Notes: generated by a model from the letters alone, not told the origin. 64,000 nucleotides of DNA from Thermodesulfobacteriota bacterium (GCA_964291405.2 OZ219926.1:2688001-2752000), one strand, 5' to 3'; counted from the stretch's first letter, positions 22,800-41,440 are shown. Numbers and translations are program-made.

Positions 22800-25520
22800 A
22801 TGACAGGGAACGAGATACGCGACAGCTTCCTGCAATTCTTTGCCGACCGGGGTCATCAGATTGTCCCGAGTGCGTCTTTGATTCCAGCCAATGATCCGAC
22901 GCTGCTGTTCACCAATGCCGGGATGGTGCCGTTCAAGAATATTTTTCTCGGGGTCGAACGGCCGACCCACCGGCGTGTGGTCGATTCCCAAAAATGTTTG
23001 CGCGTCTCCGGGAAGCATAACGATCTGGAAGAAGTGGGTCGCGATACCTACCACCACACCTTCTTTGAGATGCTGGGGAACTGGTCGTTTGGCGATTACT
23101 ACAAAAAGGAAGCTATCCGCTGGGCTTGGGAATTGCTGACCGAGGTCTGGAAACTTCCCAAGCCGAAACTCTGGGCAACGGTGTATACGACAGACGACGA
23201 GGCGGACGAGTGGTGGCGGACCCAAACCGATATCAATCCGCAACAGATTTTGCGTTTTGCTGAAAAGGACAATTTCTGGGAAATGGGCGAGACCGGCCCC
23301 TGCGGACCGTGCTCGGAAATCCATATTGACCGCGGTCCGCAGGCTTGCGAGTTAGCTAATACACCGGGCCATAGCTGCGCGGTCAACGGTGGCTGTCCAC
23401 GCTATATTGAGTTATGGAATCTGGTGTTCATACAGTACAACCGCAATGCGGATCGATCCCTGGACGATCTGCCCGAGACGCATGTTGATACGGGTATGGG
23501 CTTGGAGCGCATTGTCTCCGTTCTCCAGGACGTGCCGGGCAATTACGACTCCGACCTGCTGCGCGACATCATTACCTTTACCGAGGAGTTAGGCGAAAAG
23601 CAGAAACGTGTCCTCCAATCATCCGCAAAAGCTGGACACGTTTCTGCTTTCAAGCGCTACGGCGAGACGAGTGAACAGGATGTGTCGTTTCGGGTGATTG
23701 CCGACCATGCACGTACGGCGGCCTTTGCCATTGCCGATGGCGTGGTCCCGACCAACGAGGGGCGAGGCTATGTGTTACGGCGGATTATGCGCCGCGCCTT
23801 GCGCCACGGGCGACTCCTTGGCTTTGAGGGGCCATTTTTCTCCCAGGTCGCCGGAAGCGTGACACAACTCCTGGGCTCGGCCTACTCCGAGCTGGTTGAG
23901 CGACGAGACTATCTGACCGAGGTCATACACAACGAGGAGACCCGTTTCTCGGAAACCCTGGACAAGGGCCTGGCCCTGCTCGAGCAAGAAATCCACGATT
24001 TGCGTCAGCGCAACGCTACAACCCTGTCCGGCGAAACCGCCTTTCGGTTGTATGATACCTACGGCTTCCCGCTGGATATGACCGAGGATTTTCTGTCGTC
24101 CGAAGGTTTCAGCGTTGACCACGATGAATTTCAGGCAGCCCTGGAAGAACAGCGTGCCCGTGCGCGTGGGGGGCAAAAGTTTGCTTCCGTCTCCGTTTCT
24201 GACACCATTGGCCCGCCCACTGACACTATAAGTGCTGAAACTGTAAGGACCGATTTTGTTGGTGATCGCCAGACTGAACACGAATCCGAGGTACGCATGC
24301 TGCTGGTGGACGGACAGCCCCGAACAGACGTGGTACGCGAAGGGGAAGAAGTCGATCTAATCGTTGCCGAGACGCCTTTTTATGGCGAGTCCGGGGGACA
24401 GGTCGGGGATACGGGGACGATACGAACGAGCCGTGGCGATCTCATCGAGGTGTTGGATACGCTTAAACCGCAGCCTTCGCTTATTGTGCATAAGGGCCGG
24501 GTGGTGCAGGGCGCGATGCAGACCGGGGATGCTGTGCATCTCAGTATTGACACTCCACGGCGCGAAGCCATTCGTTTGAACCATTCCGCAACACATATCA
24601 TGCATTCCGCGCTACGCGAGATTTTAGGCTCCCACGTGCGGCAGGCCGGTTCCCTGGTCACCCCGGATCGACTCCGTTTCGACTTTACACATACCAGTCC
24701 GGTCAAGGACGATGTCCTGGACGAAATCGAAAACCTGGTGAACCACCATATTCGGGAAAATGCCGCGGTGACGAGTGAGGAGATGTCCTTTACCGACGCG
24801 ATACAAAAAGGGGCCTTGGCCTTCTTTGGCGAGAAATACGGCGAGATCGTTCGGGTGTTACGGATGGGAGATTTCTCAACCGAGCTGTGCGGCGGAACCC
24901 ACGTGAGTCGGACCGGGGACGTGGGGTTGTTCAAATTCAGAGCGGAGACGGGCGTGGCGTCCGGTATCCGGCGGGTTGAGGCGGTCACAGGCGAGGGTGC
25001 TCTCAACTGGGTGCGTCAACGCGAGCACGTGCTCAAGGACATGGGCAGTATCCTGAAAGGCTCTGAGGAGGATGCGCTTGAGCGCTTGGAAAAATTGCTG
25101 AGTCGGCAACACGAGCTTGAAAAACAACTTGACCAGCTTCAGAGCCAAATCGCCGGCTCACAAAGCGACGATCTTGCTTCCCACATCCGTCAGACCAATG
25201 GGGTCAATGTGATCGCCAGTCGGGTCGAGGGCGTGGATCAGAAAGCCCTCCGGGAGATGGCGGATACGCTACGCGACAAACACCATCCCGCGGTCGTCGT
25301 TCTCGGAGCAACGAATGGGGCGAAAGTGTCGCTTCTCGCCGCGGTGAGTAAGGATTTGGTGCCGCAATATCACGCCGGAAAGATTATCAAAGAGATCGCC
25401 CCGCTGGTTGGCGGCGGTGGAGGCGGGCGGCCCGATTTCGCCCAGGCCGGAGGAAAAGATCCCAAACGCCTGGATGAAGCCCTCCAAAAGGTGTATGAGC
25501 TGATTGAAAAAGGCGCATAA
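22800..25520 (+). CDS. alaS: Alanine--tRNA ligase (contains in-frame 54-bp element)
   Basis: DPTLLFTNAGM, HHTFFEMLGNWSFGDY, NHSATH, ELCGGTH, GGGGGGRPDFAQAGG. Confidence 0.99.
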   Translation: MTGNEIRDSFLQFFADRGHQIVPSASLIPANDPTLLFTNAGMVPFKNIFLGVERPTHRRVVDSQKCLRVSGKHNDLEEVGRDTYHHTFFEMLGNWSFGDYYKKEAIRWAWELLTEVWKLPKPKLWATVYTTDDEADEWWRTQTDINPQQILRFAEKDNFWEMGETGPCGPCSEIHIDRGPQACELANTPGHSCAVNGGCPRYIELWNLVFIQYNRNADRSLDDLPETHVDTGMGLERIVSVLQDVPGNYDSDLLRDIITFTEELGEKQKRVLQSSAKAGHVSAFKRYGETSEQDVSFRVIADHARTAAFAIADGVVPTNEGRGYVLRRIMRRALRHGRLLGFEGPFFSQVAGSVTQLLGSAYSELVERRDYLTEVIHNEETRFSETLDKGLALLEQEIHDLRQRNATTLSGETAFRLYDTYGFPLDMTEDFLSSEGFSVDHDEFQAALEEQRARARGGQKFASVSVSDTIGPPTDTISAETVRTDFVGDRQTEHESEVRMLLVDGQPRTDVVREGEEVDLIVAETPFYGESGGQVGDTGTIRTSRGDLIEVLDTLKPQPSLIVHKGRVVQGAMQTGDAVHLSIDTPRREAIRLNHSATHIMHSALREILGSHVRQAGSLVTPDRLRFDFTHTSPVKDDVLDEIENLVNHHIRENAAVTSEEMSFTDAIQKGALAFFGEKYGEIVRVLRMGDFSTELCGGTHVSRTGDVGLFKFRAETGVASGIRRVEAVTGEGALNWVRQREHVLKDMGSILKGSEEDALERLEKLLSRQHELEKQLDQLQSQIAGSQSDDLASHIRQTNGVNVIASRVEGVDQKALREMADTLRDKHHPAVVVLGATNGAKVSLLAAVSKDLVPQYHAGKIIKEIAPLVGGGGGGRPDFAQAGGKDPKRLDEALQKVYELIEKGA
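23597..23650 (+). repeat. 54-bp palindromic element copy B, in-frame in alaS
   Basis: AAAGCAGAAACGTGTCC-TCCAATCATCCGCAAAAGCT-GGACACGTTTCTGCTTT; perfect 17-bp arms; reads KQKRVLQSSAKAGHVSAF. Confidence 0.97.
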
Positions 25521-25572
25521 AGCGTAATTGCTTTACGTTTTTGACGGAGGCTGCTTGGCTGAAGTAGAACAG

Positions 25573-26727
25573 GTGACAGCAGAAACATCTCATATCGAGT
25601 TTGGCAATCATCGCTTCTTACGCGATCTCCTCGGCCAGCACGACGCGCATCTGCACGGCCTGGAGAACGCGCTCGGCGTGAAAATATCCGCCTCAGGTAA
25701 CGCCCTTATCATTGCCGGAGACGAGCCCCAGCGCGACTTGGCGGGTCGGGTGGCGACCCAACTGTACGACCTCATCCAACGTGGCTATCCCGTCTATCCG
25801 AGTGATGTGGATTACGCGGTCCGCATCCTCAGCCGTGATCATACGGCGAACCTTCAGGATATTTTTCTCGACACGGTCTATGTGTCATCCAACCGCCGAA
25901 CCATTACCCCCAAGAGTCTTGTTCAGAAAGCCTACATCGATGCCATTCGCAAATACGATATTGTGTTTGGTATCGGGCCGGCTGGCACGGGCAAAACGTA
26001 TCTGGCCATGGCCGTCGCGGTTGCCGAACTCATGAAACGTAAAGTGAGCAGAGTCGTCCTCACGCGGCCTGCGGTCGAGGCTGGGGAGAAGCTGGGTTTT
26101 CTGCCGGGCGATCTAGCCGAAAAAATTAATCCCTATCTGCGGCCTTTGTATGACGCTCTGCACGACATGGTTGACTTTGATCGTGCGCAAAAAATGATTG
26201 AGCGCGGCGTGATTGAAGTGGCTCCACTGGCCTTTATGCGTGGCCGGACGCTTAATGATTCCTTTGTCATCCTGGACGAAGCGCAGAATACGACCCGCGA
26301 GCAAATGAAGATGTTCCTCACCCGATTGGGCTACGGGTCGAAAGCCGTGATTACCGGTGATATCACCCAGATCGATCTCCCCGCCGGGACGCGCTCCGGC
26401 TTAAAAGAGGCCCGACATATTCTGCGCGATGTCGATGGGATCCAATTTACGCTCTTTACCGAAAAAGACGTGGTCCGTCACCGTCTTGTCCAAGATGTGA
26501 TTACCGCCTATGAACGCGCCCAAGAAGCCCAGGAGCGCCGCGCCCAGGAAAGTCGCGCCCTCCGTCGTAACCGCCTCCAGGCCCGGTCTGAGCGTAGACA
26601 TCAACGGCACAGTACCGGGTCTGAGCCGGCCCCAGATCCGACGCTGGAGTCGAACGATCCTGCGTCACCTGAAAGTGAAACAGGCCGAGCTGAGCCTGGC
26701 CTTCGTGACGGATCAGACCATCCATGA
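25573..26727 (+). CDS. phoH: PhoH-like ATPase with long C-terminal extension
   Basis: GPAGTGKT, RPAVEAGEKLGFLPG, AFMRGRT, DEAQN; start approximate. Confidence 0.93.
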   Translation: MTAETSHIEFGNHRFLRDLLGQHDAHLHGLENALGVKISASGNALIIAGDEPQRDLAGRVATQLYDLIQRGYPVYPSDVDYAVRILSRDHTANLQDIFLDTVYVSSNRRTITPKSLVQKAYIDAIRKYDIVFGIGPAGTGKTYLAMAVAVAELMKRKVSRVVLTRPAVEAGEKLGFLPGDLAEKINPYLRPLYDALHDMVDFDRAQKMIERGVIEVAPLAFMRGRTLNDSFVILDEAQNTTREQMKMFLTRLGYGSKAVITGDITQIDLPAGTRSGLKEARHILRDVDGIQFTLFTEKDVVRHRLVQDVITAYERAQEAQERRAQESRALRRNRLQARSERRHQRHSTGSEPAPDPTLESNDPASPESETGRAEPGLRDGSDHP

Positions 26728-27022
26728 ACTGAATCGGCAGTACCGGCACAAAGACCGGCCAACGGACGTGTTGTCGTTTCCGCTGGCCGATGAACATTGT
26801 CCGACTCTGCTGGGCGATGTGGTCATCTCGGTTGACACCGCCCGTCGGCAGGCCCGGCAGAGTAAACGCGCCTTTGCCGACGAACTGCGCGCCCTGCTCA
26901 TCCACGGCATTCTGCACCTGCTGGGCTATGACCATGAAGTGTCGGAAAGCGAAGCCGTCCGCATGCGCCGAAAAGAGCGCGAACTGAAGGCCCTGTTGCG
27001 GCAATCTGGCAATGTAGATTGA
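26588..27022 (+). CDS. ybeY: rRNA maturation endoribonuclease YbeY (start uncertain)
   Basis: LNRQYR.KDRPTDVLSF, HGILHLLGYDH. Confidence 0.9.
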   Translation: MSVDINGTVPGLSRPQIRRWSRTILRHLKVKQAELSLAFVTDQTIHELNRQYRHKDRPTDVLSFPLADEHCPTLLGDVVISVDTARRQARQSKRAFADELRALLIHGILHLLGYDHEVSESEAVRMRRKERELKALLRQSGNVD

Positions 27023-27027
27023 ATCCC

Positions 27028-27273: not shown

Positions 27274-27441
27274 TGAATATAGGTAGATGCTCTCTCGCAA
27301 TGGCAACTGGAGGCGTTTTTGTATGGGTATCCTGGTAGACATTTTTGACGAAGAGAGGCGACCCCTCTCTGAGAGGGGAATAATATACTTGGCTAACTCC
27401 ATCATTTTCCGAATACTTTCTGCTCAATAGAGAGGAAGAGC

Positions 27442-28504: not shown

Positions 28505-28588
28505 GAAAGATACCGGATTCCGGCTTATGCTGGAATAATGAGAAAGCCGGTGCGGCCCTTCCAGGCTGGGAGAGTCCGGCTGGGCTGC
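28505..28588 (+). repeat. Direct repeat copy 1 flanking the toxin-antitoxin module
   Basis: GAAAGATACCGGATTCCGGCTTATGCTGGAAT...GTGCGGCCCTTCCAGGCTGGGAGAGTCCGGCTGGGCTGC, similar to 29406-29486. Confidence 0.85.
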
Positions 28589-28689
28589 TGTTTCCACTCT
28601 TGTCGAGCAGTCAGAGTTTCGCTGACTCCCAAGGCTCGAACTGACCGCGAGTCGTGGCAGAGCAGGGGGCTTCCATCTATTCCCGGAAC

Positions 28690-29405: not shown

Positions 29406-29486
29406 GAAAGATACAGGATTCCGACTTCTGCTGGAATGGAGGGATCAGTGCGGCCTTTCCAGGCTGGGAGAGTCAGGCTAGGCTGC
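29406..29486 (+). repeat. Direct repeat copy 2 flanking the toxin-antitoxin module
   Basis: GAAAGATACAGGATTCCGACTTCTGCTGGAAT...GTGCGGCCTTTCCAGGCTGGGAGAGTCAGGCTAGGCTGC. Confidence 0.85.
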
Positions 29487-29493
29487 GGTCTGT

Positions 29494-31125
29494 ATGCAGC
29501 GTTTGTGGCCTGTTCTACTCGCCGGCGTAAGTGGTGTTGTGCTTGCCCTGGCCTTTCCGAAAGTCGATTGGAATATTCTGGCCTGGGTGGCTTTTATCCC
29601 GCTGCTCTGGATGACACAGGGGCAGACGTTACGCCGTGCTTTCAGCCTTGGCTGGATTGCCGGGATGGGGTTTTATCTCTGTACGCTGTATTGGGTCGTC
29701 GATACGATTGGCCTGTACAGCAATATCCCGCATATTATTGCCGTTGGTCCGCTGCTCCTGATGTGTGCCATTCTATCGGCATACACCGGTGTCTTTGCTG
29801 CCGGCCTGTGTGTCTGTCACAAGAGTCGGCCGCGCAACAGCGGTTGGTTGCTTCTCGTGTTTGGTCCCATGCTCTGGGTCGCCCTGGAGTGGGTCCGCTC
29901 GTTCTTTTTTATCGGGTTTCCCTGGGTCAGCCTAGGCTATTCCCAATACCACTTTGTAAACCTGATTCAGTTTGTCGAATACACTGGTGTCTACGGACTG
30001 TCGGCGCTGGTGATCTTTGGCAATGTCGCTCTCTTTATCGCCTTTTCCCGTCAGAACCGTGGGCGCCTGGTGCTGGTTCTGCTCCTGGTTATCACGGGAC
30101 TTTGGGGCTGGGGAAACTGGCGTCGTAGCCAGTTGGCGGCTCTGCCCCCGGTCCACACGCTGCACGTTGGGATCGCCCAGGGGAATATCGCCCAGGATCA
30201 AAAATGGGATCCTGATTACCAAGAGGTCACTCTCGCCCGCTATGAGCAACTCACGCGCCAGATAACAGAACAAGCAGTTGACCTGGTTATTTGGCCAGAG
30301 GCGGCAGTGCCATTTTTCTTTCAGTCTGATGTGACCTATCGTGGCCGGCTGCTGGACTTGGCCCAAGACACCAACACGCCCATCCTGTTTGGCAGTCCGG
30401 CCTTCCGAGTCGATGAGACGGAACTCACGCTATTCAACCGGGCCTATCTCCTGTCTCCGGACACGACGATTCTGGGGCATTATGACAAGATGATCCTTAC
30501 CCCCTTTGGCGAATATATCCCCTTCCAAGACAGTGTACTCTTCTTTCTGGATAAATTGGTGGAAGGGATAGGCGACTTTGCGCCAGGGACGACGCCGACC
30601 GTTTTTTCTCTTCCTCTAAAGAGTCAACCTGCCCTCCACCCCGATGATAAAGCTAGGGGCGTTGAGGCTTTTAAGACTTTTGGTGTGCTCGTCTGCTATG
30701 AGGGTGTGTTCCCTGACCTCGCGCGCCGCTTCGTTCATAATGGCGCGCAACTGCTGATCAACGTGACCAATGATGCCTGGTTCGGAGAGACTTCGGCTCC
30801 CTATCAACATCTGGCCATGGAGGCCATGCGGGCCGTCGAGAATCGAGTGCCCATGGTGCGGTCCGCGAATACCGGGATTTCAGCTATTGTGAATATCGAT
30901 GGCCAGATTCAGACCCAAACAGCACTCCTGGAGACCACCTTTATTGCCGACCAGATTACCTGGCCCCACGTGACTTCTTTCTATACCCGGTACGGCGACT
31001 GGTTTGTGACGTTGTGCGTCGTCGGGACGCTCGTTATGTTAGGTTATACAGGGATAATTGTAGTATTCGTCAAGCGAACTGGAGGAGGCGGAGATGCTGG
31101 CAGAAATCAGAGAAAAATTACATGA
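29494..31125 (+). CDS. lnt: Apolipoprotein N-acyltransferase (contains degenerate in-frame 54-bp element)
   Basis: Multiple TMs, GFPW..LGYSQ, QGNI, WPE, YDK..L.PFGEYIP, CYE, NDAWFG, RSANTGIS. Confidence 0.96.
   Translation: MQRLWPVLLAGVSGVVLALAFPKVDWNILAWVAFIPLLWMTQGQTLRRAFSLGWIAGMGFYLCTLYWVVDTIGLYSNIPHIIAVGPLLLMCAILSAYTGVFAAGLCVCHKSRPRNSGWLLLVFGPMLWVALEWVRSFFFIGFPWVSLGYSQYHFVNLIQFVEYTGVYGLSALVIFGNVALFIAFSRQNRGRLVLVLLLVITGLWGWGNWRRSQLAALPPVHTLHVGIAQGNIAQDQKWDPDYQEVTLARYEQLTRQITEQAVDLVIWPEAAVPFFFQSDVTYRGRLLDLAQDTNTPILFGSPAFRVDETELTLFNRAYLLSPDTTILGHYDKMILTPFGEYIPFQDSVLFFLDKLVEGIGDFAPGTTPTVFSLPLKSQPALHPDDKARGVEAFKTFGVLVCYEGVFPDLARRFVHNGAQLLINVTNDAWFGETSAPYQHLAMEAMRAVENRVPMVRSANTGISAIVNIDGQIQTQTALLETTFIADQITWPHVTSFYTRYGDWFVTLCVVGTLVMLGYTGIIVVFVKRTGGGGDAGRNQRKIT
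30618..30671 (+). repeat. 54-bp palindromic element copy C (diverged), in-frame in lnt
   Basis: AAAGAGTCAACCTGCCC-TCCACCCCGATGATAAAGCT-AGGGGCGTTGAGGCTTT; reads KSQPALHPDDKARGVEAF. Confidence 0.8.
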
Positions 31126-32198
31126 GCTGAGCGCGCGCATTGAGAGTCTTGGGAGGCATCTTTGACATCCCGGATAAGGAAGCTCGTGCCGCGGCACTGG
31201 AAGAACAGACGCTGGCCGACGGATTCTGGCAAGATCAGGAAAAGGCGCAAGCCATCCTCAAGGAGCGAGCAAGCCTGCTCGACACGGTAACGGAGTGGAA
31301 AAAGCAGACCCAGGCCGCATCTGACGCGCTGATTTTTCTGGAACTGGCCGAAGCCGGAGACGCCGAGGCGGTTGAAGAAGTCGAGCGGGCGGTGCCCGAG
31401 CTTGAGGCGACCGTGAGTCGGGCAGAGTTGCAGCGTATGCTGGGCGGAGAACACGATGCGCAGAGTGCCATCGTCAGTCTCCACCCCGGTGCGGGTGGTC
31501 TTGAGGCCCAGGACTGGGCCGATATGCTCCTCCGACTGTATCTGCGCTGGGCGGAACGCCGCAGCTATACCGTAGAGATGGCCGAACACCTGCCTGGTGA
31601 AGGCGGTGGGGTAAAAAGTGTAACCTTTACCGTTGAGGGGGCCTACGCCTACGGCTATTTGCGGGCAGAGGCGGGCATTCATCGGCTCGTTCGGATTTCG
31701 CCGTTTGATGCCAATGCCCGGCGGCATACCTCCTTTGCCTCTGTCTTTGTCTATCCGGATATTGATGAGGCTGTCGAAGTCGATATCCGTCCTGAAGATT
31801 TGCGCGTTGATACCTACCGGGCCAGTGGAGCCGGGGGACAGCATGTCAACAAAACCGACTCAGCGATTCGCCTGACCCACCTCCCGAGCGGGATTGTCGT
31901 GGCGTGTCAAAACGAACGGTCCCAACATCGGAACCGAACCATGGCGATGAAAATTCTTCGCGCCCGTTTATACGAGCTGGAGATGGAGAAACAAAAGGAG
32001 AAGATGGAGGGCCTGCATAAAAGCAAAAAGGATATCGCCTGGGGAAGTCAGATTCGCTCCTATGTCCTCCATCCCTACCGGATGGTCAAAGACCATCGCA
32101 CCGGCGTGGAGGTCGGGAACACCGACGCGGTTCTGGATGGTGATATCGATCAGTTTATTGAAGCTTATCTGCTCCAACAATCGACGGTAGCCGAGTAA
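31094..32198 (+). CDS. prfB: Peptide chain release factor 2 (programmed +1 frameshift)
   Basis: Leader MLAEIREKLHELSARIESLGRHL then CTT-TGA-C; SPF and GGQ motifs in the +1 frame. Confidence 0.97.
31151..31166 (+). promoter_or_regulatory. prfB autoregulatory frameshift site
   Basis: Internal SD GGGAGG, 3-nt spacer, CTTTGAC. Confidence 0.95.
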
Positions 32199-32288
32199 CG
32201 GTTTCGGCCGTTCTCGACCCGTGAACCGGGTCACGAGAACAGCACAATCTCTTGGCAATCATCCGGGAAGCAGGTACACTCCTGCGAC

Positions 32289-32342
32289 AAAGAGGAAACG
32301 TGTCCACCAATCAGGCACAGAGGCTGGATACGTTTCCTCTTT
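32289..32342 (+). repeat. 54-bp palindromic element copy D (between prfB and PAC2 gene)
   Basis: AAAGAGGAAACGTGTCC-ACCAATCAGGCACAGAGGCT-GGATACGTTTCCTCTTT. Confidence 0.95.
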
Positions 32343-32388
32343 CTGTCCTTGCCTGAGACCAAGGGGTAAGCGCCTCTGGGGGGAAACC

Positions 32389-33306
32389 ATGAACGCATTG
32401 ACAATTGAACGAATTCCGGAACTGAACGACCCCGTCCTGATTGTCGCCTTTGCCGGCTGGAACGATGCCGGCAGTGCGGCGACGCATGCCACGCAATTTC
32501 TTATCAAACGACTCCAGGCCCAGCGTTTCGCGACGATCGACCCTGAAGAATTTTATAATTTCAGTGAGGTCCGGCCCCACGTGCGCCTGCGAGATGGCCT
32601 CTACCGCGAGATTCGCTGGCCGGCCAATGAATTCTTTGCGACTAGCGCAGAGCAGCTCAAGCGCAGCATGGTCCTGGGTCAGGGCATTGAACCGCATCTC
32701 CGCTGGAAGGCGTATTCAGCGGCCTGTCTGGATGTTGCCAAGCAGTGTGGGGTGCGCCTCGTGATTACCCTGGGTGCGCTCTTGGCCGATGTGGCCTACT
32801 CCAGGCCGGTACGCGTGGTCGGATTTAGCAGCGACCCCGATATTGCGACCCAACTCCAACTCACCCCGTCCCGCTACGAGGGGCCAACCGGCATCGTCGG
32901 GGTGTTGAACGATGCCTGCCGACAGGCTGGATTGACGTCCATCAGTTTCTGGGCCAACGTGCCGCACTATATTTCCGCTTCTCCAAACCCAAAGGCCGCC
33001 CTGGCTCTCGTCAGCCGTCTTGAGTCCTTTCTCCACTTCGCCCTGGATACCACCGAGTTGGTGACGGGCGCGGCGGAGTTTGACGCACAGGTTGCAAAGG
33101 CGATTGCCGAGAATCCCAACTTGGCCGCCTATGTCAAACGCCTGGAAGAACAGGAGCAGGAAGAGGGGCTGGAAACGGAGACCGCTGCGCAGGACAAAGC
33201 CGGCAACGGACACGGCAACGGCAACGGGCATGCCAACGGCAAGGATATGGCTGAAGAACTCCAGCGTTTCTTGCAGCAGCGTAAGGATCGTAAAGATGAC
33301 GAGTGA
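32389..33306 (+). CDS. PAC2 (proteasome assembly chaperone-like) family protein
   Basis: AFAGWNDAG.AAT, IDPEEFYNF...RP, EPHLRW, LGALLADV..SRP, YEGPTGIVGVL, WANVPHY. Confidence 0.85.
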   Translation: MNALTIERIPELNDPVLIVAFAGWNDAGSAATHATQFLIKRLQAQRFATIDPEEFYNFSEVRPHVRLRDGLYREIRWPANEFFATSAEQLKRSMVLGQGIEPHLRWKAYSAACLDVAKQCGVRLVITLGALLADVAYSRPVRVVGFSSDPDIATQLQLTPSRYEGPTGIVGVLNDACRQAGLTSISFWANVPHYISASPNPKAALALVSRLESFLHFALDTTELVTGAAEFDAQVAKAIAENPNLAAYVKRLEEQEQEEGLETETAAQDKAGNGHGNGNGHANGKDMAEELQRFLQQRKDRKDDE

Positions 33307-34810
33307 GGCCCGGCCCGACCCGGATAAGTCCGTGTATATGGTGAATCTGGGTTGCCCTAAAAATCTCGTGGATGGCGAGGTCATGCTCGGCCTGCTGGCG
33401 GATGCAGGCTATACGCTGAGCCTCGACCCGGAACAGGCCGGGGTCCTGATGGTCAATACGTGCAGCTTTATCGACGAGGCCAAGGAAGAGTCGATTGAGA
33501 CGATCTTGGACTTGGCGACCTATAAGACGACGAAGACAAAGAGGAAACGCGCCCTCCAATCAGACAAAAAAGCCGGACACGTTTCCTCTTTCGAGAAACA
33601 GCTCATTGTGACCGGCTGTTTAGCCCAGCGCTACGGTCAGGAGCTGCGCGAACTTCTCCCTGAAGTTGACGTTTTTGTGGGAACGGGAGAGTTTCTTCGG
33701 ATCACCGAGATATTGGAACAAAGGCGGCGCGCGCTTGAAAAGAGGGAACGTGTCCTCCAATCATCCAAAAAAGCTGGACACGTTCCCTCTTTTGGTCCTA
33801 CCATGTATCTGGGGGCCTCTCACGTCCTGCCGGATCATACCGTTCCGCGTATCCCGACTACCCATTTTTACTCCGCCTATCTCAAGGTCGCCGAAGGTTG
33901 CAACCACAAATGCGCCTTTTGTATTATTCCGAAAATTCGCGGCTTACAGGAAAGTCGGCCGATTGCTTCTCTCGTGGCCGAAGCTACCGGACTGGTCGCA
34001 CAAGGGGTGAGAGAAATTAATCTCATTGCGCAAGACCTGACCGCTTACGGGCGAGAGCGCCGTGATGGGACGACCCTGCTGGCCCTGCTCAAATCCCTCG
34101 TGCGCGTTAAGGGTCTGGACTGGATTCGGCTGCTGTACTGCTATCCGAATTATCTCGACGAAGCCCTGTTAGGTTTCATTGCCGCAGAAGAAAAAGTATG
34201 CCCGTATATTGATATGCCGCTCCAGCATATCAGCGACCGGATGTTGAGGCGGATGAAGCGGGAGAAAAGCGGGGACGGCATTCGCCGCGTGTTGGACCGG
34301 ATTCGGGCCGCTATTCCCAATGTGATTATACGCTCGTCTTTTATTGTTGGCTTTCCCGGTGAGCGAGAGGACGATTTTCAGCAGCTGTGCGATTTCGTAA
34401 CCGAGGCGGAGCTCGATCACGTAGGGGTGTTTCGCTATTCCCAGGAGGAAGGGACAGCTGCTGGTACAATGGCCGACCAGATCAGCGAAGAGATCAAAGA
34501 AGACCGCTGGCACAAATTGATGGCCTGCCAGGCCGAAGTCGTGCGTAAAAAAAATAGCGCGCTGGTGGGTGAGGAACGATCGATACTCGTCTGTGGTCAG
34601 GACGATCACGGCCGCTGGTGGGGGCGGACGCAGGGCCAGGCTCCGGATATCGATGGCATCGTCTTCCTGGAACAGTGTCCGGCTGACAGCGGCGACATGG
34701 TCCGTGCCCGGATTACCGGGGCGTCCGGTTATGACCTGCAAGCGCGCTGTCTTCCCGAGCAGCCGTTTCAAACATCCACAGCTCTTGACTTGGCAGCCGC
34801 TTCTCCCTAA
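33296..34810 (+). CDS. rimO: Ribosomal protein S12 methylthiotransferase (contains two in-frame 54-bp elements)
   Basis: LGCPKNLVD, NTCSFI, GCLAQRY, CNHKCAFC radical SAM motif, QAPDIDG TRAM region. Confidence 0.96.
   Translation: MTSEARPDPDKSVYMVNLGCPKNLVDGEVMLGLLADAGYTLSLDPEQAGVLMVNTCSFIDEAKEESIETILDLATYKTTKTKRKRALQSDKKAGHVSSFEKQLIVTGCLAQRYGQELRELLPEVDVFVGTGEFLRITEILEQRRRALEKRERVLQSSKKAGHVPSFGPTMYLGASHVLPDHTVPRIPTTHFYSAYLKVAEGCNHKCAFCIIPKIRGLQESRPIASLVAEATGLVAQGVREINLIAQDLTAYGRERRDGTTLLALLKSLVRVKGLDWIRLLYCYPNYLDEALLGFIAAEEKVCPYIDMPLQHISDRMLRRMKREKSGDGIRRVLDRIRAAIPNVIIRSSFIVGFPGEREDDFQQLCDFVTEAELDHVGVFRYSQEEGTAAGTMADQISEEIKEDRWHKLMACQAEVVRKKNSALVGEERSILVCGQDDHGRWWGRTQGQAPDIDGIVFLEQCPADSGDMVRARITGASGYDLQARCLPEQPFQTSTALDLAAASP
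33538..33591 (+). repeat. 54-bp palindromic element copy E, in-frame in rimO
   Basis: AAAGAGGAAACGCGCCC-TCCAATCAGACAAAAAAGCC-GGACACGTTTCCTCTTT; reads KRKRALQSDKKAGHVSSF. Confidence 0.97.
33739..33792 (+). repeat. 54-bp palindromic element copy F, in-frame in rimO
   Basis: AAAGAGGGAACGTGTCC-TCCAATCATCCAAAAAAGCT-GGACACGTTCCCTCTTT; perfect arms; reads KRERVLQSSKKAGHVPSF. Confidence 0.97.
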
Positions 34811-34843
34811 GGTGTCTCTCCTTTTTATCTCGACCGTGGTGAA

Positions 34844-34897
34844 AAAGAGTCAAGATGTCCTCCACGCATCCAAATAAAGCTGGACACGTTTACCCTT
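34844..34897 (+). repeat. 54-bp palindromic element copy G (degenerate; upstream of dksA RBS)
   Basis: AAAGAGTCAAGATGTCC-TCCACGCATCCAAATAAAGCT-GGACACGTTACCCTTT. Confidence 0.88.
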
Positions 34898-34910
34898 TGG
34901 AGAAGGCGTC

Positions 34911-35330
34911 ATGAGAAAAACGTTCCTCAAAAAAATGCGGACGACGCTCGCCGGCCAAAAACAGCAAATCCTGATGCAGCTTGACGAAGAGATCCGAGAG
35001 GGAAAAGAGAGTGAGCTGGACGCAGGAATGGATACCTACGATCTCGCCAGCGAGGAACGCGAACGGGAAATCCATCTGATCCTGAGTGACCGTGATCGAG
35101 ATAAACTGCAAGCCATAGAAAACGCGCTGGAGCGGATCGAAGAGGGCGAATACGGCATCTGCGAAGACTGCGAAGAAGAGATCGCCCAAGCTCGCCTCGA
35201 GGCGTTACCGTTCACCAGACTGTGTGTTGCGTGCCAAGAGGAACGCGAAAAGGAGGCGCGCTTTCAGCGCCGTATTGATGATGGGGGTGGATTCGGTCGG
35301 TCCAACTTGGTTGATCTGGACGACGGGTAA
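34911..35330 (+). CDS. dksA: DksA/TraR-family C4 zinc-finger protein
   Basis: DTYDLAS tip motif, ALERIEEGEYGICEDC...RLEALP...CVAC. Confidence 0.85.
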   Translation: MRKTFLKKMRTTLAGQKQQILMQLDEEIREGKESELDAGMDTYDLASEEREREIHLILSDRDRDKLQAIENALERIEEGEYGICEDCEEEIAQARLEALPFTRLCVACQEEREKEARFQRRIDDGGGFGRSNLVDLDDG

Positions 35331-35407
35331 AATCAGCTTCGTCTTTTTCCTCGGTCCATTCTGGTTGCCTGCGCAAGGCGTCTCCTCTGTCGTCCCGCAG
35401 TGATGAG

Positions 35408-36787
35408 ATGCGACCCGACGACCGATACATTCTGCTCACTACGCTCTTTCGGACGGCCATTGAGGCGGTCCACCCGCGCCATCTGATCCCACAGACTGTT
35501 ACGATTGAAAAGGAGCAGCTGATCGTTCGGCCACGGGACGAGACCGTTGGCGCGTTGACGCTCGCTCTGACGGGTCGTCTCTTCCTGATTGGGGCAGGGA
35601 AGGGGGCAGGCAGTATGGCCCAGGCACTGATGTCCGTGCTTGGCCAGAGGGGCATTGGCGGATGTGTTATCATTCCGAGCGAGCAAGCGGTGTCCGACCT
35701 GTCTCTGCCTGGAGTACGGGTGGTGCAAGGGGAGCATCCCTTGCCTGGACCGGGCAGTGAGTACGCGGCCCAAGCGCTCATAGAGAGCCTCTCCCAGGTT
35801 CAACCTCACGACCTCGTCATGTTGTGTCTGACCGGTGGGGCCTCCAGCCTGCTCGTGCGTCCCGCAGTTGGGCTGACACTTTCGGACAAGACCATCACCA
35901 ATGCCGTCTTGTTGGAATGCGGAGCGGACATCCTGGCGCTGAACACCGTACGCAAACATATATCCGGGGTAAAAGGCGGCTGGCTCGCGCACCACGCTCA
36001 GCCGGCGACTGTGGTCAGTCTGATTCTGTCGGACGTGATTGGTGATGATATGAGTGTGATCGGCTCGGGTCCGACCGTAGCCGATCCAACGACGTTTATG
36101 GATGCCTGGCGGGTGGTGGAGCAGTACGGTATCGCCCCGCGGCTCCCCCAGTCTGTGTGCGCGCATCTGCGGCAAGGAGTCCGTGGGGCCAGACCGGAGA
36201 CGCCAAAACCCGGAGACCCGCTATTCTCTCGCGTCTATAATATACTGATTGGGTCAAATCACTTGGCCTTGCAGGCGGCCCGCGAGGCTGCCGCGCACCA
36301 AGGGCTGCGCTCTCACCTGATTTCTCAGCCCCTCGCTGGTGATACCCTCGTGGCCGGACGCGCCTTTGCCCAAGCCCTGAGAGCCGTTCGTCAACACTGC
36401 TCTGGCCCAACGTGTATTCTGGCCGGTGGCGAGACAACGGTACAGGTCAGAGGCCCTGGGAAGGGGGGGCGCAACCAGGAATTTGCGCTGGCTGTCGCCC
36501 AAGAGCTTGCCGGGGAAGCCGGGTGGAGCCTGCTGAGTGTGGGAACGGACGGCATAGATGGTCCGACCGATGCTGCCGGAGCCTTTGTGAACGGCCAGAC
36601 GCTGGACCGAGCGCGTCGAAAAAATCTCGACCCCGCTCAATTTCTGCGCAATAATGATACCTATACTTTCTTTTCTGCTCTGGGTGACTTGTTTCGCCCA
36701 GGCTCAACAGGAACAAACGTGATGGATATTAAAATTGCGCTTGTGGATCCTCCCCGCGCTGAAGAGCGCTACGGCAAAAAAGAATAG
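35408..36787 (+). CDS. Glycerate 2-kinase (MOFRL/TtuD family)
   Basis: GAGK, HPLP, GGASSL, KGG.L, SDVIGDD, GGETTV, GGRNQE, GTDGIDG, TGTNVMD. Confidence 0.92.
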   Translation: MRPDDRYILLTTLFRTAIEAVHPRHLIPQTVTIEKEQLIVRPRDETVGALTLALTGRLFLIGAGKGAGSMAQALMSVLGQRGIGGCVIIPSEQAVSDLSLPGVRVVQGEHPLPGPGSEYAAQALIESLSQVQPHDLVMLCLTGGASSLLVRPAVGLTLSDKTITNAVLLECGADILALNTVRKHISGVKGGWLAHHAQPATVVSLILSDVIGDDMSVIGSGPTVADPTTFMDAWRVVEQYGIAPRLPQSVCAHLRQGVRGARPETPKPGDPLFSRVYNILIGSNHLALQAAREAAAHQGLRSHLISQPLAGDTLVAGRAFAQALRAVRQHCSGPTCILAGGETTVQVRGPGKGGRNQEFALAVAQELAGEAGWSLLSVGTDGIDGPTDAAGAFVNGQTLDRARRKNLDPAQFLRNNDTYTFFSALGDLFRPGSTGTNVMDIKIALVDPPRAEERYGKKE

Positions 36788-36790
36788 GAC

Positions 36791-37141: not shown

Positions 37142-37188
37142 GAAATCCCCGCTTTTCCTATTCTGAATGGACATTCAGTCAGTTTTTC

Positions 37189-37215
37189 TTGACAAAACCC
37201 AGGTGTCAATAGTAT
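37189..37215 (+). promoter_or_regulatory. Putative promoter/operator with TTGACA-N9-TGTCAA palindrome
   Basis: TTGACA 37189-37194, TGTCAA 37204-37209, TAGTAT 37210-37215. Confidence 0.4.
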
Positions 37216-37282
37216 GACTGTATATCCGGACAGTACGAGGATGGAGTGGAAAAGATTGAGGTCCATGTCCGAAGAAGTCTGC

Positions 37283-38320
37283 ATGGCTGTCTACACTGTC
37301 CTTGACCGCAAAGCCGTTAATCGTCTCGTCAAAGACTATGGATTAGGGCGTTTGTCAACCGCTCAGGGTATCTCTGCCGGATCGGTGAACACTCATTATT
37401 GCCTTGAGGCTGCGAAGGGAAAATTCGTTCTGCGAATTGATGAGGTCAAAGACACGAGCGACGCGCAGCGTGAAATCGACTTTCTGCTCTTCTTGCGTAA
37501 ACGTGGCTTTCCGTGCCCACGGCCGGTGGCCGACAAAAACGGTTCCTATCTCCAGGAATACGAAAAGAAGGCGGTCTCTATCTATCGTCATCTGGCCGGC
37601 AAAGACTTCTCGGCCGCAACGCTCACCAATGACCACATAGAAAAGATTGGACAGACCCTGGCCCGGCTCCATCTCATTGGCCAGGAATATGATACCCCGA
37701 TCAGAAACCGGTTTGCTTTTGACCGTGTACGCAGTATTTATCAAAACCTGCGCGGCCGTATTGCGGTCCATCTGAAGCATATCGGCCACGTCCTGGATGA
37801 TGAAATCGCCCATCAGGAAGAATATCGGGAAGAAAAGCTGCCAAAAGGCATGATCCACGGCGACCTCTTTCCTGATAACGTCCTGTTTCGTGGTGGGAGA
37901 GTCGTTGGTGTGCTCGACTTTGAAGCGGCCTGTTTTGGCAAATTCATTGCCGACCTGGCAACTGCCGTAAACGCCATGTGCTATTACGAGGAGCGCTACC
38001 ATATTGGTCGATTCAACGCCCTCCTTGACGGTTATCAGTCCGAGCGTACGCTTTCGCTAGCCGAGTGGGACGCCTTTCCGAATGAGCTCCGTTTTTCCGC
38101 CTTCCGCTTTACTCTGACTCGTCTGCGTGATTTTTTCTTTCGCCACATGGATGAAAAACGACGGGTGAATAAGGATTATCGGGAATTCTTTCACCGTCTC
38201 AGAATCCTCCGCCGGGAGCGGAGCGGTGGGATGGACCAAATGCTCCTCACGATGGCAACGGGCTATGATTACCGCAAGTATCAAAAGATCCACGCTGAGG
38301 AAAAAGGCGTGAACGCCTAA
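37283..38320 (+). CDS. thrB: Homoserine kinase type II (APH-fold)
   Basis: MAVYT.L, G..NT.Y, LARLH, IHGDLFPDNVLF, LDF. Confidence 0.85.
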   Translation: MAVYTVLDRKAVNRLVKDYGLGRLSTAQGISAGSVNTHYCLEAAKGKFVLRIDEVKDTSDAQREIDFLLFLRKRGFPCPRPVADKNGSYLQEYEKKAVSIYRHLAGKDFSAATLTNDHIEKIGQTLARLHLIGQEYDTPIRNRFAFDRVRSIYQNLRGRIAVHLKHIGHVLDDEIAHQEEYREEKLPKGMIHGDLFPDNVLFRGGRVVGVLDFEAACFGKFIADLATAVNAMCYYEERYHIGRFNALLDGYQSERTLSLAEWDAFPNELRFSAFRFTLTRLRDFFFRHMDEKRRVNKDYREFFHRLRILRRERSGGMDQMLLTMATGYDYRKYQKIHAEEKGVNA

Positions 38321-38370
38321 GTCCGGTACCCCCTGCGCCCTGACAACATTGCGGAGACATCCAGACCACT

Positions 38371-39867
38371 GTGTTTTCAAAGATACTCATTGCAAACCGA
38401 GGTGAGATCGCCACTCGTATCGCTCGGACCTGTCGTGAAATGGGTATCGCAACAGTGGCCGTGTACTCAGAGGCTGACCGTTCTTCACCCCATCTGTATG
38501 TGGCGGACGAGGCCGTGTGTGTGGGGCCGGCTCAGGCCAGCGAGAGTTATCTCAACGTGGAGTCCATGCTGGCCGCGGCCCGCCAGACCAGGGTGAACGC
38601 GATCCATCCTGGATATGGATTTTTATCGGAGAATGCGACATTTGCTCGGGCCGTAGCTGATGCCGGCCTGACCTTTATCGGCCCTGCTCCGGATGCCCTG
38701 TCTGCGGTTGGAAACAAGATTGTTGCGCGCCGGACAGTGGCTCAACTCGGTGTTCCGGTGATTCCTGCGCTTGAAGACCCGGCGACCGACCCCAAGACGG
38801 TGCGTGAGCAAGTCGCAGCACTCGGCTACCCCCTCTTGATTAAAGCGGCTGCGGGTGGTGGCGGTAAAGGAATGCGCATTGTGCGCGAGGAAGCCGAGTT
38901 GGTTGAGGCCTTGTCTGCGGCGCAGCGCGAAGCCGAAGCGGCCTTTGCCGAAGGGACGGTCTATGTTGAGCGTTTTCTCGAACGTCCCCACCATGTGGAA
39001 GTCCAGATTCTTGGTGACACTGCCGGGAATATCGTCCATCTTGGCGAACGGGAATGCTCCATTCAGCGCCGCTATCAGAAAATAGTCGAAGAGACTCCCT
39101 CACCCGCCGTATCCGAGTCCCTGCGGCAGGAGATGACCAAGGCCGCGCTTACCGTGGCCAGAGCCGCCGGCTATGACAATGCCGGAACCGTCGAATTCAT
39201 CCTCGACAACGACGGGAAATTCTATTTTCTTGAAGTCAACGCTCGCCTCCAGGTTGAGCATCCGATTACCGAGTGGATTACCGGTCTGGATCTGGTGCAA
39301 GAACAAATCCGGATTGCCGCCGGGGAAGCGCTGGGTTTCCAGCAAGATGACATCCGCCGGAACGGCCACGCCCTTGAGTGCCGTTTATATGCCGAAGATG
39401 CCGCCCACGGGTTCCTGCCGTCGCCCGGACATGTCTTGGCCTGGCATGCGCCCCAGGGACCGGGGGTACGGGTTGATTCCGGAGTCGAGTCGCAGACCGA
39501 AGTCCCGATATACTATGATCCCATGATTGCCAAGATTTCGACTTGGGGAGCGGACCGTGAACAAGCCCGCAGACGCATGGCCGGGGCGCTTCGTCAAACG
39601 GCGGTTCTGGGCCTCACGACCAACCTGCCTTTTTTAATTGAGCTCATGGACCATCCTGCCTTTGCCGCTGGCGATACCCACACCGGCTTTCTGTCCGAGT
39701 ATTTTCCGAACTGGCAACCCGGCGATCAGCCGCATACGCTTGCGGCTGCTCTGGCCGCCAGTCTGCACCGTGGTCCATATCGAAACGGTGATGGATCGAC
39801 CTCTTTACCCTCGCAGGACTCCTCGACTCCATGGCGACAGCTTGGCGGCTGGCGCCTCGGCTCCTGA
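38371..39867 (+). CDS. Acyl-CoA carboxylase, biotin carboxylase subunit
   Basis: KILIANRGEIA, HPGYGFLSEN, GGGGKGMR, ERECSIQRR, RLQVEHP, YYDPMIAK. Confidence 0.95.
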   Translation: MFSKILIANRGEIATRIARTCREMGIATVAVYSEADRSSPHLYVADEAVCVGPAQASESYLNVESMLAAARQTRVNAIHPGYGFLSENATFARAVADAGLTFIGPAPDALSAVGNKIVARRTVAQLGVPVIPALEDPATDPKTVREQVAALGYPLLIKAAAGGGGKGMRIVREEAELVEALSAAQREAEAAFAEGTVYVERFLERPHHVEVQILGDTAGNIVHLGERECSIQRRYQKIVEETPSPAVSESLRQEMTKAALTVARAAGYDNAGTVEFILDNDGKFYFLEVNARLQVEHPITEWITGLDLVQEQIRIAAGEALGFQQDDIRRNGHALECRLYAEDAAHGFLPSPGHVLAWHAPQGPGVRVDSGVESQTEVPIYYDPMIAKISTWGADREQARRRMAGALRQTAVLGLTTNLPFLIELMDHPAFAAGDTHTGFLSEYFPNWQPGDQPHTLAAALAASLHRGPYRNGDGSTSLPSQDSSTPWRQLGGWRLGS

Positions 39868-39885
39868 TACCCGAATTATTCCGAA

Positions 39886-40407
39886 ATGAAGACCTTACTC
39901 TATGTCGCGGGTGAAGAACTGGCGCTGGAATATAACCAACACGGCGAGAGCGACGACCTGTACGAGCTTGTCTGGAACGGCCAGACTCAGCAACCGGCAC
40001 ATGTGGTCACTATTCGGGATGGTACGATCACCTTCCTCGTTGACGGTCATCCTCTTCATGCCCATGTGGTCCGGGATGGTGACCGCAGCCTGATATCCAT
40101 CGAGGGGCGGACCTACGAATTCAATCACACTCCCCCTAAGGACGCCCGAGCCCGCCAGCGGGGGACGAGGGGGAGCTTTGAACCTGAGATCCGCTCCCCC
40201 ATGCCAGGGAAAATTCTCGCCGTCAAAGTCGTCGAAGGCGAGGTTGTCGAAGACGGCCAAACCCTCGTGCTTCTCGAAGCGATGAAAATGGAGAATGCGC
40301 TGACTGCCGAGGGGAATGCCCGTGTAGCTACCATCCATGTGGCCGACGGAGACCTCGTCGAACTTGGTCAGGTTCTGGTCGAGCTTGAGCCAATCGAAGC
40401 AGAGTAG
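39886..40407 (+). CDS. Biotin carboxyl carrier (biotin/lipoyl domain) protein
   Basis: SPMPGKI...LEAMKMEN. Confidence 0.92.
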   Translation: MKTLLYVAGEELALEYNQHGESDDLYELVWNGQTQQPAHVVTIRDGTITFLVDGHPLHAHVVRDGDRSLISIEGRTYEFNHTPPKDARARQRGTRGSFEPEIRSPMPGKILAVKVVEGEVVEDGQTLVLLEAMKMENALTAEGNARVATIHVADGDLVELGQVLVELEPIEAE

Positions 40408-40427
40408 ACAGCCCAGTGGAGGTGCCC

Positions 40428-41342
40428 TCAGCCGAGCTGGGAACCCACCTGAAGCCCAATATGCCCAGCGAGCTCGTCAGCGGCGATTTTGCCCCGCTCA
40501 CCGCGGAGCTTTTTGGCGACGACGGTGCCACCGTTCAGGGCAATGCTGACAGTCCCATCCCCAAGGGCGAGCACTTGTCCCGGTGTTGCTGATCCGCTAG
40601 ACGGCTCCAGGCGACAGTCATACAGGCGGATTTTCTGTCCGCGCCATAGTGTCGATGCGCCGGGCTGTGGGTCGCACCCGCGGATATGGTCAAAGACGGC
40701 TTGCGCTGGCTGAGACCAGTCAATGCCAGAATGTTCATCCCGACACAACGGATCGTAATTGGCCTGGGATTCGTCTTGGACAATGCGCGGCGGACTACCG
40801 GCTTGAATCAGATCGATCGCCTCACCAGCGGCCTCAATACCGAGCGGGAAGAGTTTGTTGAAGTACAGGGTTCCGGTTGTCTCTTCTGGGCCAATTTCGA
40901 CTTCTTTTTGCACCAGTATCGGACCGGTATCAATACCCTCGTCTACCCAGAACCAGGAGATACCGGTCTTTTTCTCACCATTGATCAGGGTCCAGTTAAT
41001 CGCACTCCCACCACGATACTTGGGTAAGAGTGACGGGTGAAAACAGATGCTACCGAGTTTGGGCGCGTTGAACACTGGAGGCGGAACGATTTGGGTCACG
41101 AAGGCCAATACGGCGAGATCCGCGTCGAGCTCTTGAAATTTCCCCAAGACCTCAGGACTCTTCATGGAGCGGTGTTGATAAACGGGAATATCGAGTTCCC
41201 CTGCCCGCTTCTTGACAGGATCAAACTTTCCTTCGACTCTGTCCGGGGGGCAAAACACCGCCAGGATATCCTGGCCCTTATCCCGGAGCTTATCGAGCGT
41301 TTTTTCCGCAAACGCGGCTTGACCAATGAGAATGATACGCAT
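40428..41342 (-). CDS. Methionyl-tRNA formyltransferase-like formyltransferase
   Basis: HPSLLPKYRGGSAINW, DEGIDTG, IRGCDPQPGA. Confidence 0.85.
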   Translation of the reverse strand: MRIILIGQAAFAEKTLDKLRDKGQDILAVFCPPDRVEGKFDPVKKRAGELDIPVYQHRSMKSPEVLGKFQELDADLAVLAFVTQIVPPPVFNAPKLGSICFHPSLLPKYRGGSAINWTLINGEKKTGISWFWVDEGIDTGPILVQKEVEIGPEETTGTLYFNKLFPLGIEAAGEAIDLIQAGSPPRIVQDESQANYDPLCRDEHSGIDWSQPAQAVFDHIRGCDPQPGASTLWRGQKIRLYDCRLEPSSGSATPGQVLALGDGTVSIALNGGTVVAKKLRGERGKIAADELAGHIGLQVGSQLG

Positions 41343-41384
41343 ATGGGTTCTCCTTTCCGTACGTCCGTTCGACAGTCTGTTGGC

Positions 41385-41440
41385 AAAGAGTAAACGTGTC
41401 CAGCTTTTTTTTGTCTGGCTGGAGGATACGTTTACTCTTT
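41385..41440 (-). repeat. Palindromic element copy H (56 bp, minus strand, intergenic)
   Basis: Minus strand AAAGAGTAAACGTATCC-TCCAGCCAGACAAAAAAAAGCT-GGACACGTTTACTCTTT. Confidence 0.95.

Follow-up and report, generated by a model that had tools for sequence, protein, structure and literature searches.

A 54-bp palindrome of uncultured Binatia with covarying arms is probably a mobile DNA element and not a functional RNA

Short palindromic repeats that recur in bacterial genomes are best described from a few systems. In the hairpins known as REPINs, which derive from repetitive extragenic palindromic (REP) sequences, compensatory changes are common according to the sections of PMC3116915 that deal with them, and quasipalindromes are described in the relevant part of PMC7202029 as growing more perfect when the nascent strand copies the other arm. 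The Rickettsia palindromic elements (RPEs) are presented in the pertinent passages of PMC10969869 as sequences of ca. 150 bp that lie in frame in unrelated housekeeping genes as well as in intergenic regions and for which that account gives no known transposase. The same passages place some copies of bacterial MITEs (miniature transposable elements with inverted repeats) such as Correia/CREE, ERIC, or Chunjie in operons or genes and predict that their transcripts fold into stem-loops. Here, we describe a 54-bp palindrome that is present in eight copies, found with a repeat finder and by direct reading, in a stretch of 64,000 nucleotides from a Thermodesulfobacteriota bacterium (GCA_964291405.2 OZ219926.1:2688001-2752000), which we call the window throughout. 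In the following, G000 is the genome of the window and all other G-numbers are the genomes of relatives.

The arms of this element covary, both between its copies and among orthologous copies at the same site, and we consider it probable that it is a mobile DNA palindrome akin to REPINs or RPEs in which covariation is a property of the palindromic DNA and not the mark of a functional RNA. Each element consists of two 17-bp arms around a polar loop of ca. 20 nt. The arm consensus reads AAAGAG[T/G][A/G]AACGTGTCC with the other arm as its complement, and the loop starts with TCCA and ends with GCT. Within the arm consensus AAAGAGTAAACGTGTCC, the only self-complementary stretch is ACGT, and one continuous stem is predicted. 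The copies in the window and the genes that host some of them are the following:

Copy A, 15971..16024, plus strand: intergenic; arms with AGGA/TCCT.
Copy B, 23597..23650, plus strand: in frame in alaS, residues 272-289, in the tRNA-synt_2c domain; CAGA/TCTG.
Copy C, 30618..30671, plus strand: in frame in lnt, in the CN_hydrolase domain; TC/GA at positions 7-8.
Copy D, 32289..32342, plus strand: intergenic between a release-factor gene and a PAC2-family gene; AGGA/TCCT.
Copy E, 33538..33591, plus strand: in frame in rimO, in the UPF0004 domain; AGGA/TCCT.
Copy F, 33739..33792, plus strand: in frame in rimO, between UPF0004 and Radical_SAM; AGGG/CCCT, perfect stem.
Copy G, 34844..34898, plus strand: intergenic between rimO and dksA; an old copy with a decayed stem, 13/17 pairs in G000.
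Copy H, 41385..41440, minus strand: intergenic between the minus-strand genes for formyltransferase and FGase; AGTA/TACT.
alaS, 22782..25520, plus strand: host of copy B; Pfam domains tRNA-synt_2c, tRNA_SAD, and DHHA1.
lnt, 29539..31125, plus strand: host of copy C; Pfam domains LNT_N and CN_hydrolase.
rimO, 33296..34810, plus strand: host of copies E and F; Pfam domains UPF0004, Radical_SAM, and TRAM_2, with the start taken from a crude gene caller.

A first-pass annotation of this DNA had placed the element between 23597 and 41440, a range that takes in seven of the eight copies and leaves copy A outside. The arm variants that it listed for copies A, B, C, D, E, F, and H are all found in the sequence as it described them, and so is the TCCA at the 5' end of the loop. 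The AAAGCT that it gave for the 3' end of the loop holds in part, as this end is AAAGCT or a near variant (GAGGCT in copy D, AAAGCC in copy E) and GATGCT is commoner than AAAGCT across G000. Folded as single strands, six of the eight window copies reach z-scores of -3.5 to -8.3, with none of 200 shuffles folding equally well. Copy C in lnt and copy G, with z-scores of -0.18 and -0.13, respectively, fold no better than shuffles, and copy B forms a perfect stem of 17 bp.

An iterated nhmmer search of G000 returned 156 non-overlapping matches to the element (E<1e-3), all of them chromosomal. Both arms are recognizable in 152 of these; of the four that were left out, two are half copies, one is truncated, and one is the decayed copy in lnt. 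The two-armed copies are 54 nt long in 88 cases and 51-57 nt in the rest. Among the 151 distinct sequences in this set, 89.6% of stem cells are Watson-Crick pairs, and 97 cells, spread over 12 of the 17 pairs, differ at both positions and are still Watson-Crick, as opposed to 25.1±4.1 in column shuffles (largest value in 1000 shuffles: 40) and to 21-30 such cells in registers slid by one to three columns. The principal covarying pairs of the stem are these:

Stem position 7: majority T-A (97), minority G-C (39).
Stem position 15: majority T-A (126), minority C-G (15).
Stem position 14: majority G-C (117), minority A-T (6) and C-G (5).
Stem position 3: majority A-T (137), minority T-A (7) and G-C (3).

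The shuffle between copies ignores relatedness, and much of its signal is subfamily structure. For changes within orthologous sites, the syntenic 29 kb were taken from 18 congeners and the copies grouped by their flanks into 24 sites. After dropping rows with fewer than nine paired positions and sites left with fewer than three rows, 119 copies at 15 sites remained, and derived states at true partner columns were compared with 2000 random re-pairings of columns that keep the phylogenetic pattern of each column. Double changes within sites number 28 against 17.0±3.4 expected (P=0.001), and those that are complementary number 17 against 5.2±2.1, a count that none of the 2000 permutations reaches (largest 15), so the covariation claimed by the first-pass annotation stays significant when many copies are used and phylogeny is accounted for. 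A simpler count within sites gives 12 changes from one Watson-Crick pair to another in the true register and 1-5 in slid registers. At least five compensated pairs have states that are absent from all 152 two-armed copies in G000 and were thus not donated by other copies, i.e., positions 9, 10, and 13 of the alaS copy in G013 (AAAC/GTTT to ACCC/GGGT) and one pair each at site 13 (position 9) and site 14 (position 10). As had also been proposed from the window, some of the compensation in coding copies alters amino acids: AGG/TCT has changed to CAG/GCT in alaS, where G013 adds three further compensated pairs, and the peptide encoded by this copy is almost wholly changed between G000 and G013, yet 13 of its 17 pairs and two G·T pairs are kept.

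The element comes and goes with great precision. A filled allele has the palindrome and nothing else in excess of the empty one, without any target duplication, in alaS (GGCGA^CAAG, with the caret marking the junction) and at the rimO sites (AAGAC^CGAG and CTTGA^TGGT), and the same exact difference is seen at more than ten intergenic sites. The target junctions vary (GA^CA, AC^CG, GA^TG, CA^GC, and others). Presence and absence vary among close relatives at every site, and 8 of the 24 sites are filled in one genome only, which points to recent insertion. Copy A, directly 3' of the stop codon of the upstream gene and 5' of the ribosome-binding site of the next, has orthologues in 14 of 19 genomes, and the empty alleles in G011 and G019 end ...ggtaa^gcgg. 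The old and decayed copy C, with 11 of 17 pairs in G000, is filled in 15 of 19 genomes and degenerate in G013. Copy D is filled in 8 of 19 genomes, with an exactly empty site in G042, and its flanks (window 32288-32343) are joined in one RNA contig of a ca. 7% divergent relative that skips exactly 54 nt and comes most simply from a strain with an empty site. At alaS, the site is filled in G000, G002, G023, G041, and G043, and holds a degenerate copy in G013, and 13 further alleles are exactly empty. The CAGA/TCTG variant is found at this site only, in 5 of 28 genomes, which indicates that the alaS copy arose once. Filled and empty alleles are interleaved on a tree of eight genes and also on a local tree of ±350 nt, and this interleaving together with a single gain implies ca. 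seven exact losses.

Some alleles carry remnants of the element or an altered form of it. Copy E is filled in 6 of 19 genomes, reduced to AAATTT in three, and exactly absent from others. This AAATTT, which corresponds to the three outermost base pairs of the arms, is kept at rimO site 1 in G001, G010, and G022, which belong to different clades. A 22-nt palindrome that consists of the outer 11 bp of both arms, with the core deleted, lies at C3:2812972 of G000; an exact-match search of G000 for symmetrical core-deleted footprints gave no hits, so the footprint evidence stays anecdotal. Both loop orientations occur within identical flanks at 3 of the 16 sites that are common to at least three genomes. 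The loop of copy G is inverted in place in G005, G006, and G022, and at site 4 the copy in G011 is the exact reverse complement of the 50-nt copy that G018 carries between the same flanks. G005 has a flipped loop at site 1 and keeps a G·T mismatch at arm position 14 on the same sides, which places the exchange within or next to the arms.

Pairing is only weakly maintained, as pair-breaking changes are the majority and the stems of old copies decay. The within-site set contains 154 single derived changes that break a pair against 17-28 double changes, the lnt copy has 10-14 of 17 pairs over 15 genomes (mean 12.0, with a mean of 16.8 for the alaS copy), and a C·A mismatch at position 15 persists in all 14 orthologues of copy A. 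Divergence from G000 amounts to 0.126 in the arms, 0.106 in the loops, and 0.197 at third codon positions of six neighboring genes. Since elements are somewhat slower than this rough neutral yardstick and loops no faster than arms, homogenization or a constraint on sequence fits better than selection on pairing alone. The first-pass annotation had proposed that the hairpin is upheld either by selection or by correction of one arm from the other, even in coding copies. Of these, templated correction fits best; strong selective maintenance in coding copies is not supported in view of the excess of breaking over double changes and of the lnt copy, which no longer folds.

The element enters and leaves exactly at the base of its stem without a target-site duplication. 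If it is a mobile DNA palindrome, new copies would descend from source copies whose strand still folds. In resident copies, the arms may occasionally template each other during replication, presumably by quasipalindrome template switching or arm-arm recombination, and such templating would transfer a change between the arms and could invert the loop. We propose that the arms stay complementary owing to hairpin-competent sources together with templated correction, and that foldable sources let whole paired variants spread as subfamilies. We infer both the filter that hairpin competence would place on new copies and any mechanism of movement.

Several results weigh against this proposal. The excess of double changes is modest, with ca. 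12 events over expectation among ca. 180 changes, and part of it could be conversion from other copies, since many derived pairs are common family variants. The age trend is weak, with on average 13.9 pairs at sites filled in at least ten genomes, 14.5 in three to nine, and 14.25 in one or two. Elements diverge more slowly than third codon positions, which could reflect selection on sequence or structure instead of homogenization. Template switching would be known from its presumed products, of which the footprints and loop flips themselves are observed, and the flip at site 1 with its retained arm mismatch is not what a simple whole-arm template switch predicts. The pattern at alaS could alternatively stem from very short recombination tracts, with exact loss being partly recombination with empty alleles; against this, the filled allele of G043 shares the haplotype of its clade to within ca. 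25 nt of the junction. Gene contexts come from a crude gene caller except where Pfam was run. Finally, no mobilizing enzyme was found, and no known class that was tested (Y1, Y2, IS110) fits.

Significant compensation within sites would also be expected of a functional RNA hairpin, e.g., an mRNA stabilizer, processing site, or translational pause, that is kept paired by host-level selection on the transcript. Like REP-type mRNA stabilizers, 55 of 129 non-coding copies lie no more than 15 nt from a gene 3' end, and the element is oriented with transcription in all eight window copies and in 69 copies overall against 44 opposed. Outside coding sequence, however, the orientation is 51 against 39, and a helix under selection as RNA should accept G·U much more readily than A·C, which is not seen: the mRNA-sense strand carries 63 G·U and 81 A·C mismatches where flanking genes agree in direction, and single changes in situ comprise 48 G·T and 53 A·C. 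The in-place inversion of loops, their divergence no higher than that of the arms, the loss of the fold in old copies, the presence of copies within at least 17 unrelated coding sequences, and the lack of any Rfam match at gathering score in the window all speak against such an RNA as well, and we regard it as improbable (a permissive Rfam scan of 33400-35000 yielded merely sub-threshold chance look-alikes such as plastid and miRNA hairpins). The first-pass annotation had noted mismatches of both types, which are indeed present, and had concluded that RNA and DNA cannot be told apart from the window, suggesting a count of mismatches by strand. This count, without a G·U excess on the mRNA strand, now narrows the question together with the DNA-level events that are seen directly: exact insertion, recurrent exact loss, symmetrical footprints, loop flips, the missing G·U excess, and conserved loops favor DNA. 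On the element's own strand, as defined by loop polarity, 119 G·T face 88 A·C mismatches (p=0.037; 99 and 68 at positions 2-16), with copies and not events being counted. This excess, which is partly due to a G·T variant at position 8 in 22 copies, hints that one DNA strand is the folded and propagated form. A DNA site that is useful to the host, e.g., as a target of a dimeric protein or as a nucleoid or replication signal, could likewise have its pairing selected as DNA symmetry, and the location of 78 of 152 copies within 500 kb of dnaA would then reflect its use, in line with the stronger conservation of loop and arms compared to third codon positions. With presence and absence free among close relatives at every site, with copies that decay, and with copies sitting in coding sequence, we consider such a site very improbable.

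The other two explanations concern how variants spread. Without any correction within the element, double changes could arise by ectopic gene conversion or by excision and re-insertion of another variant, and covariation would then be subfamily structure. Most derived pairs are indeed common family variants (AGGA/TCCT, GCG/CGC, GTATCC/GGATAC, GTGCCC/GGGCAC), orthologues at both rimO sites switch between the two common loop variants, …ATCATCC… and …ATCAGAC…, and the lower divergence of elements than of third codon positions is what concerted evolution predicts. This is at odds with the compensated pairs whose states are absent from G000, with an alaS variant that occurs nowhere else in 28 genomes, and with mismatches as long-lived as the C·A in 14 of 14 copy A orthologues, which together make conversion alone an unlikely source. 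In a strict REP/REPIN family, a REP-associated tyrosine transposase (RAYT, a Y1 HUH transposase) would move single-stranded DNA, and competence for transposition alone would select the hairpin. Exact gain and loss without target duplication and the own-strand G·T excess, which suggests one folded strand, agree with this; compensatory changes and excision are also reported for REPINs in the portion of PMC3116915 concerned. G000 does encode a RAYT-like Y1_Tnp gene (C3:981618-982402), but it is broken into two open frames (135 and 110 residues), copies of another G+C-rich repeat lie on either side of it and show as recurring peptide strings in spurious neighboring open reading frames (ORFs), and the nearest copies of the element are ca. 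19 kb or more away. Y1_Tnp matches (RAYT/IS200 type) were found in 13 of 28 congeners. Among the 13 genomes with at least ten exact element matches, 7 have no such match, and five element-free genomes do have one. On the grounds of this patchy co-occurrence and of the split gene with its foreign repeat, we rejected a link to RAYTs. The arms are moreover not palindromic REPs, at least 17 copies are intragenic, and the flanks have no conserved target tetranucleotide, so that a strict REP/REPIN family appears quite unlikely.

IS91-type Y2 and IS110 transposases were rejected as movers, too, since each is found in only 1 of 28 genomes. A longer parent element with the same ends was not found in G000, where a scan for solo arms revealed no arm pair enclosing a gene. 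Ten genes have copies on both sides; the nine of them that were run on Pfam are ordinary enzymes or give no match, and there is no nuclease or transposase among them. One conceivable scheme, offered with little confidence, is that an element without a transposase of its own is joined into a nick elsewhere by host replication or repair while the same fold lets its arms proofread each other and its loop flip, i.e., a self-maintaining palindrome that spreads by host DNA metabolism alone. If true, this would also explain the crowding at the origin and the absence of Y1, Y2, and IS110 enzymes from most carriers.

The element persists in places that can accommodate a short spacer or 18 additional codons, i.e., in intergenic regions, at the 3' ends of genes, and, in frame, within housekeeping genes. 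By the crude gene caller, 23 copies in G000 are coding, 48 overlap a gene end, and 81 are intergenic, and 19 of the 23 coding copies are exactly 54 nt long. Besides the genes of the window, Pfam places in-frame copies of G000 in mnmG, mnmE, mfd, an addB-like gene, a uvrA-like gene, yceD, ftsQ, and genes for a histidine kinase, an FAD monooxygenase, a HEAT-repeat protein, an APH-family kinase, an outer-membrane efflux protein (two), and a PMT-family glycosyltransferase. Pfam domains with an in-frame copy are in several cases ca. 18 residues over the length of the profile (407 against 389 for GIDA, 261 against 243 for CN_hydrolase), and the UPF0004 match in rimO spans 117 residues against 97 profile positions. 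In 24 copies (e.g., C3:876577, 2160931, and 2424135), the upstream gene has its called stop codon in the TAA at arm positions 7-9, which indicates, on the word of the crude gene caller, that the element replaced the last codons of those genes.

On the chromosome of G000, where dnaA lies at 2.46 Mb, 49 of the 152 copies fall within 250 kb of this gene. A second, small rise of 15 copies is seen in the bin farthest from the origin, and the cumulative GC skew of C3 is almost flat over 1.75-3.0 Mb. Relative to replication, 89 copies are leading and 63 lagging, a bias that is found on one replichore only and is not decisive. The flanks of the 152 copies show G at -5 in 86 and C at +5 in 77, with almost no A at -6 and almost no T at +6. 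We rejected base pairing as the source of this signal at ±4-6, as these positions are unpaired when examined copy by copy and the signal is missing at coding copies.

Among the genomes searched, the repeat is limited to a single family of uncultured Binatia. An exact 21-base pattern of the element is found in 16 of 41 relatives, all from the genus of the window (15 of 24 congeners and none of 16 genomes from other genera). When 201 genomes of the class were searched by BLAST with one copy as query, 16 proved to carry the repeat, i.e., G000, 12 of 16 sampled congeners, and 3 of 5 genomes of a sister genus, and none of 176 genomes from 19 other families did. Our searches of open-access texts returned no description of such a repeat in Binatia, and within their reach the family has not been reported before.

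Some further observations concern individual copies and their surroundings. Upstream of a long ORF, G000 has two identical copies (C3:2091886-2091939 and 2091987-2092040) that share their orientation and are spaced by 101 nt, which looks like a local duplication of a copy plus its flank. A second small palindrome, CCCCTCCTTGGGAGGG / CCCTCCCAAGAGGGG, abuts the copies at C3:3669622, 3684699, 4668937, 3498312, 3343750, 1001355, and 38174, three of which have a right flank resembling GTGCCGCGTAGCGGC in common, and these copies may be part of a larger composite repeat. The window itself contains two 42-nt direct repeats (28550-28591 and 29448-29489; 90% identical, 898 nt apart) in a region with short ORFs only, which are unrelated to the hairpin element, as well as three collinear blocks of direct repeats (38837-39106 / 45576-45845; 6739 nt apart, 70-74% identity) that are probably two paralogous genes. 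DNA runs labelled as sponge metagenome contain 31-50% of sampled words of window 32000-36000. Metatranscriptome contigs of relatives are too sparse to inform on transcripts of the element, and RNA contig ends near elements are probably assembly breaks.

The element has much in common with the REP/REPIN sequences of Pseudomonas and enterobacteria, i.e., short hairpin repeats in hundreds of copies that mostly lie just 3' of genes. With 156 copies in G000 and nine tenths of its stem cells paired, it is itself a high-copy palindromic repeat. It also shares with them the lack of target duplication, the excision, and the compensatory changes that PMC3116915 reports in its pertinent part. Yet REPINs are doublets of REPs that each have their own small palindrome, while the element described here is a single 17-bp stem that reaches to its ends. 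REPIN families have a cognate RAYT that is flanked by REPs, whereas the Y1 gene here does not co-occur with the family, and REP/REPIN sequences are extragenic, whereas the element is also found in frame in alaS, lnt, rimO (two copies), mnmG, mnmE, mfd, and others. REP hairpins have a conserved GTAG/CTAC tetranucleotide at the hairpin foot. No conserved tetranucleotide is present in the flanks of the element, and TAG occurs at loop positions 6-8 in about half of the 20-nt loops. The palindromes derived from IS200/IS605 insertion sequences insert 3' of a fixed tetra- or pentanucleotide and go with the Y1 transposase TnpA, whereas junctions here vary and Y1 is patchy. MITEs are similarly small and non-autonomous and have inverted terminal repeats, but they carry direct repeats from target duplication, of which there are none in the pairs of filled and empty alleles from alaS, from the two rimO sites, and from more than ten intergenic sites, and they derive from insertion sequences, none of which shares its ends with the element in G000.

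The RPEs resemble the element as palindromes that lie in frame in unrelated protein-coding genes and in intergenic regions without a known transposase; by the description in the relevant part of PMC10969869, the two are set apart by size and host, with ten RPE families of ca. 150 bp in Rickettsia and 54 bp in Binatia. In this case, it is essential genes of an uncultured phylum (alaS, rimO, lnt, mnmE, mnmG, and mfd) that tolerate insertions of 18 codons. Quasipalindrome template switching, finally, is known from the thyA and lacZ reporters of E. coli covered in part by PMC7202029 as a mutational process in the laboratory and not as a repeat family, and the process that we propose for compensation in situ, here from comparison of natural alleles, is the same. 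Compensatory changes in a repeated hairpin are hence no proof of a functional RNA, as a selfish DNA palindrome has the same signature, and the natural series of filled, empty, footprint, and loop-flipped alleles in ca. 20 related genomes could serve to quantify, in nature, exact excision and the template switching that hairpins drive.

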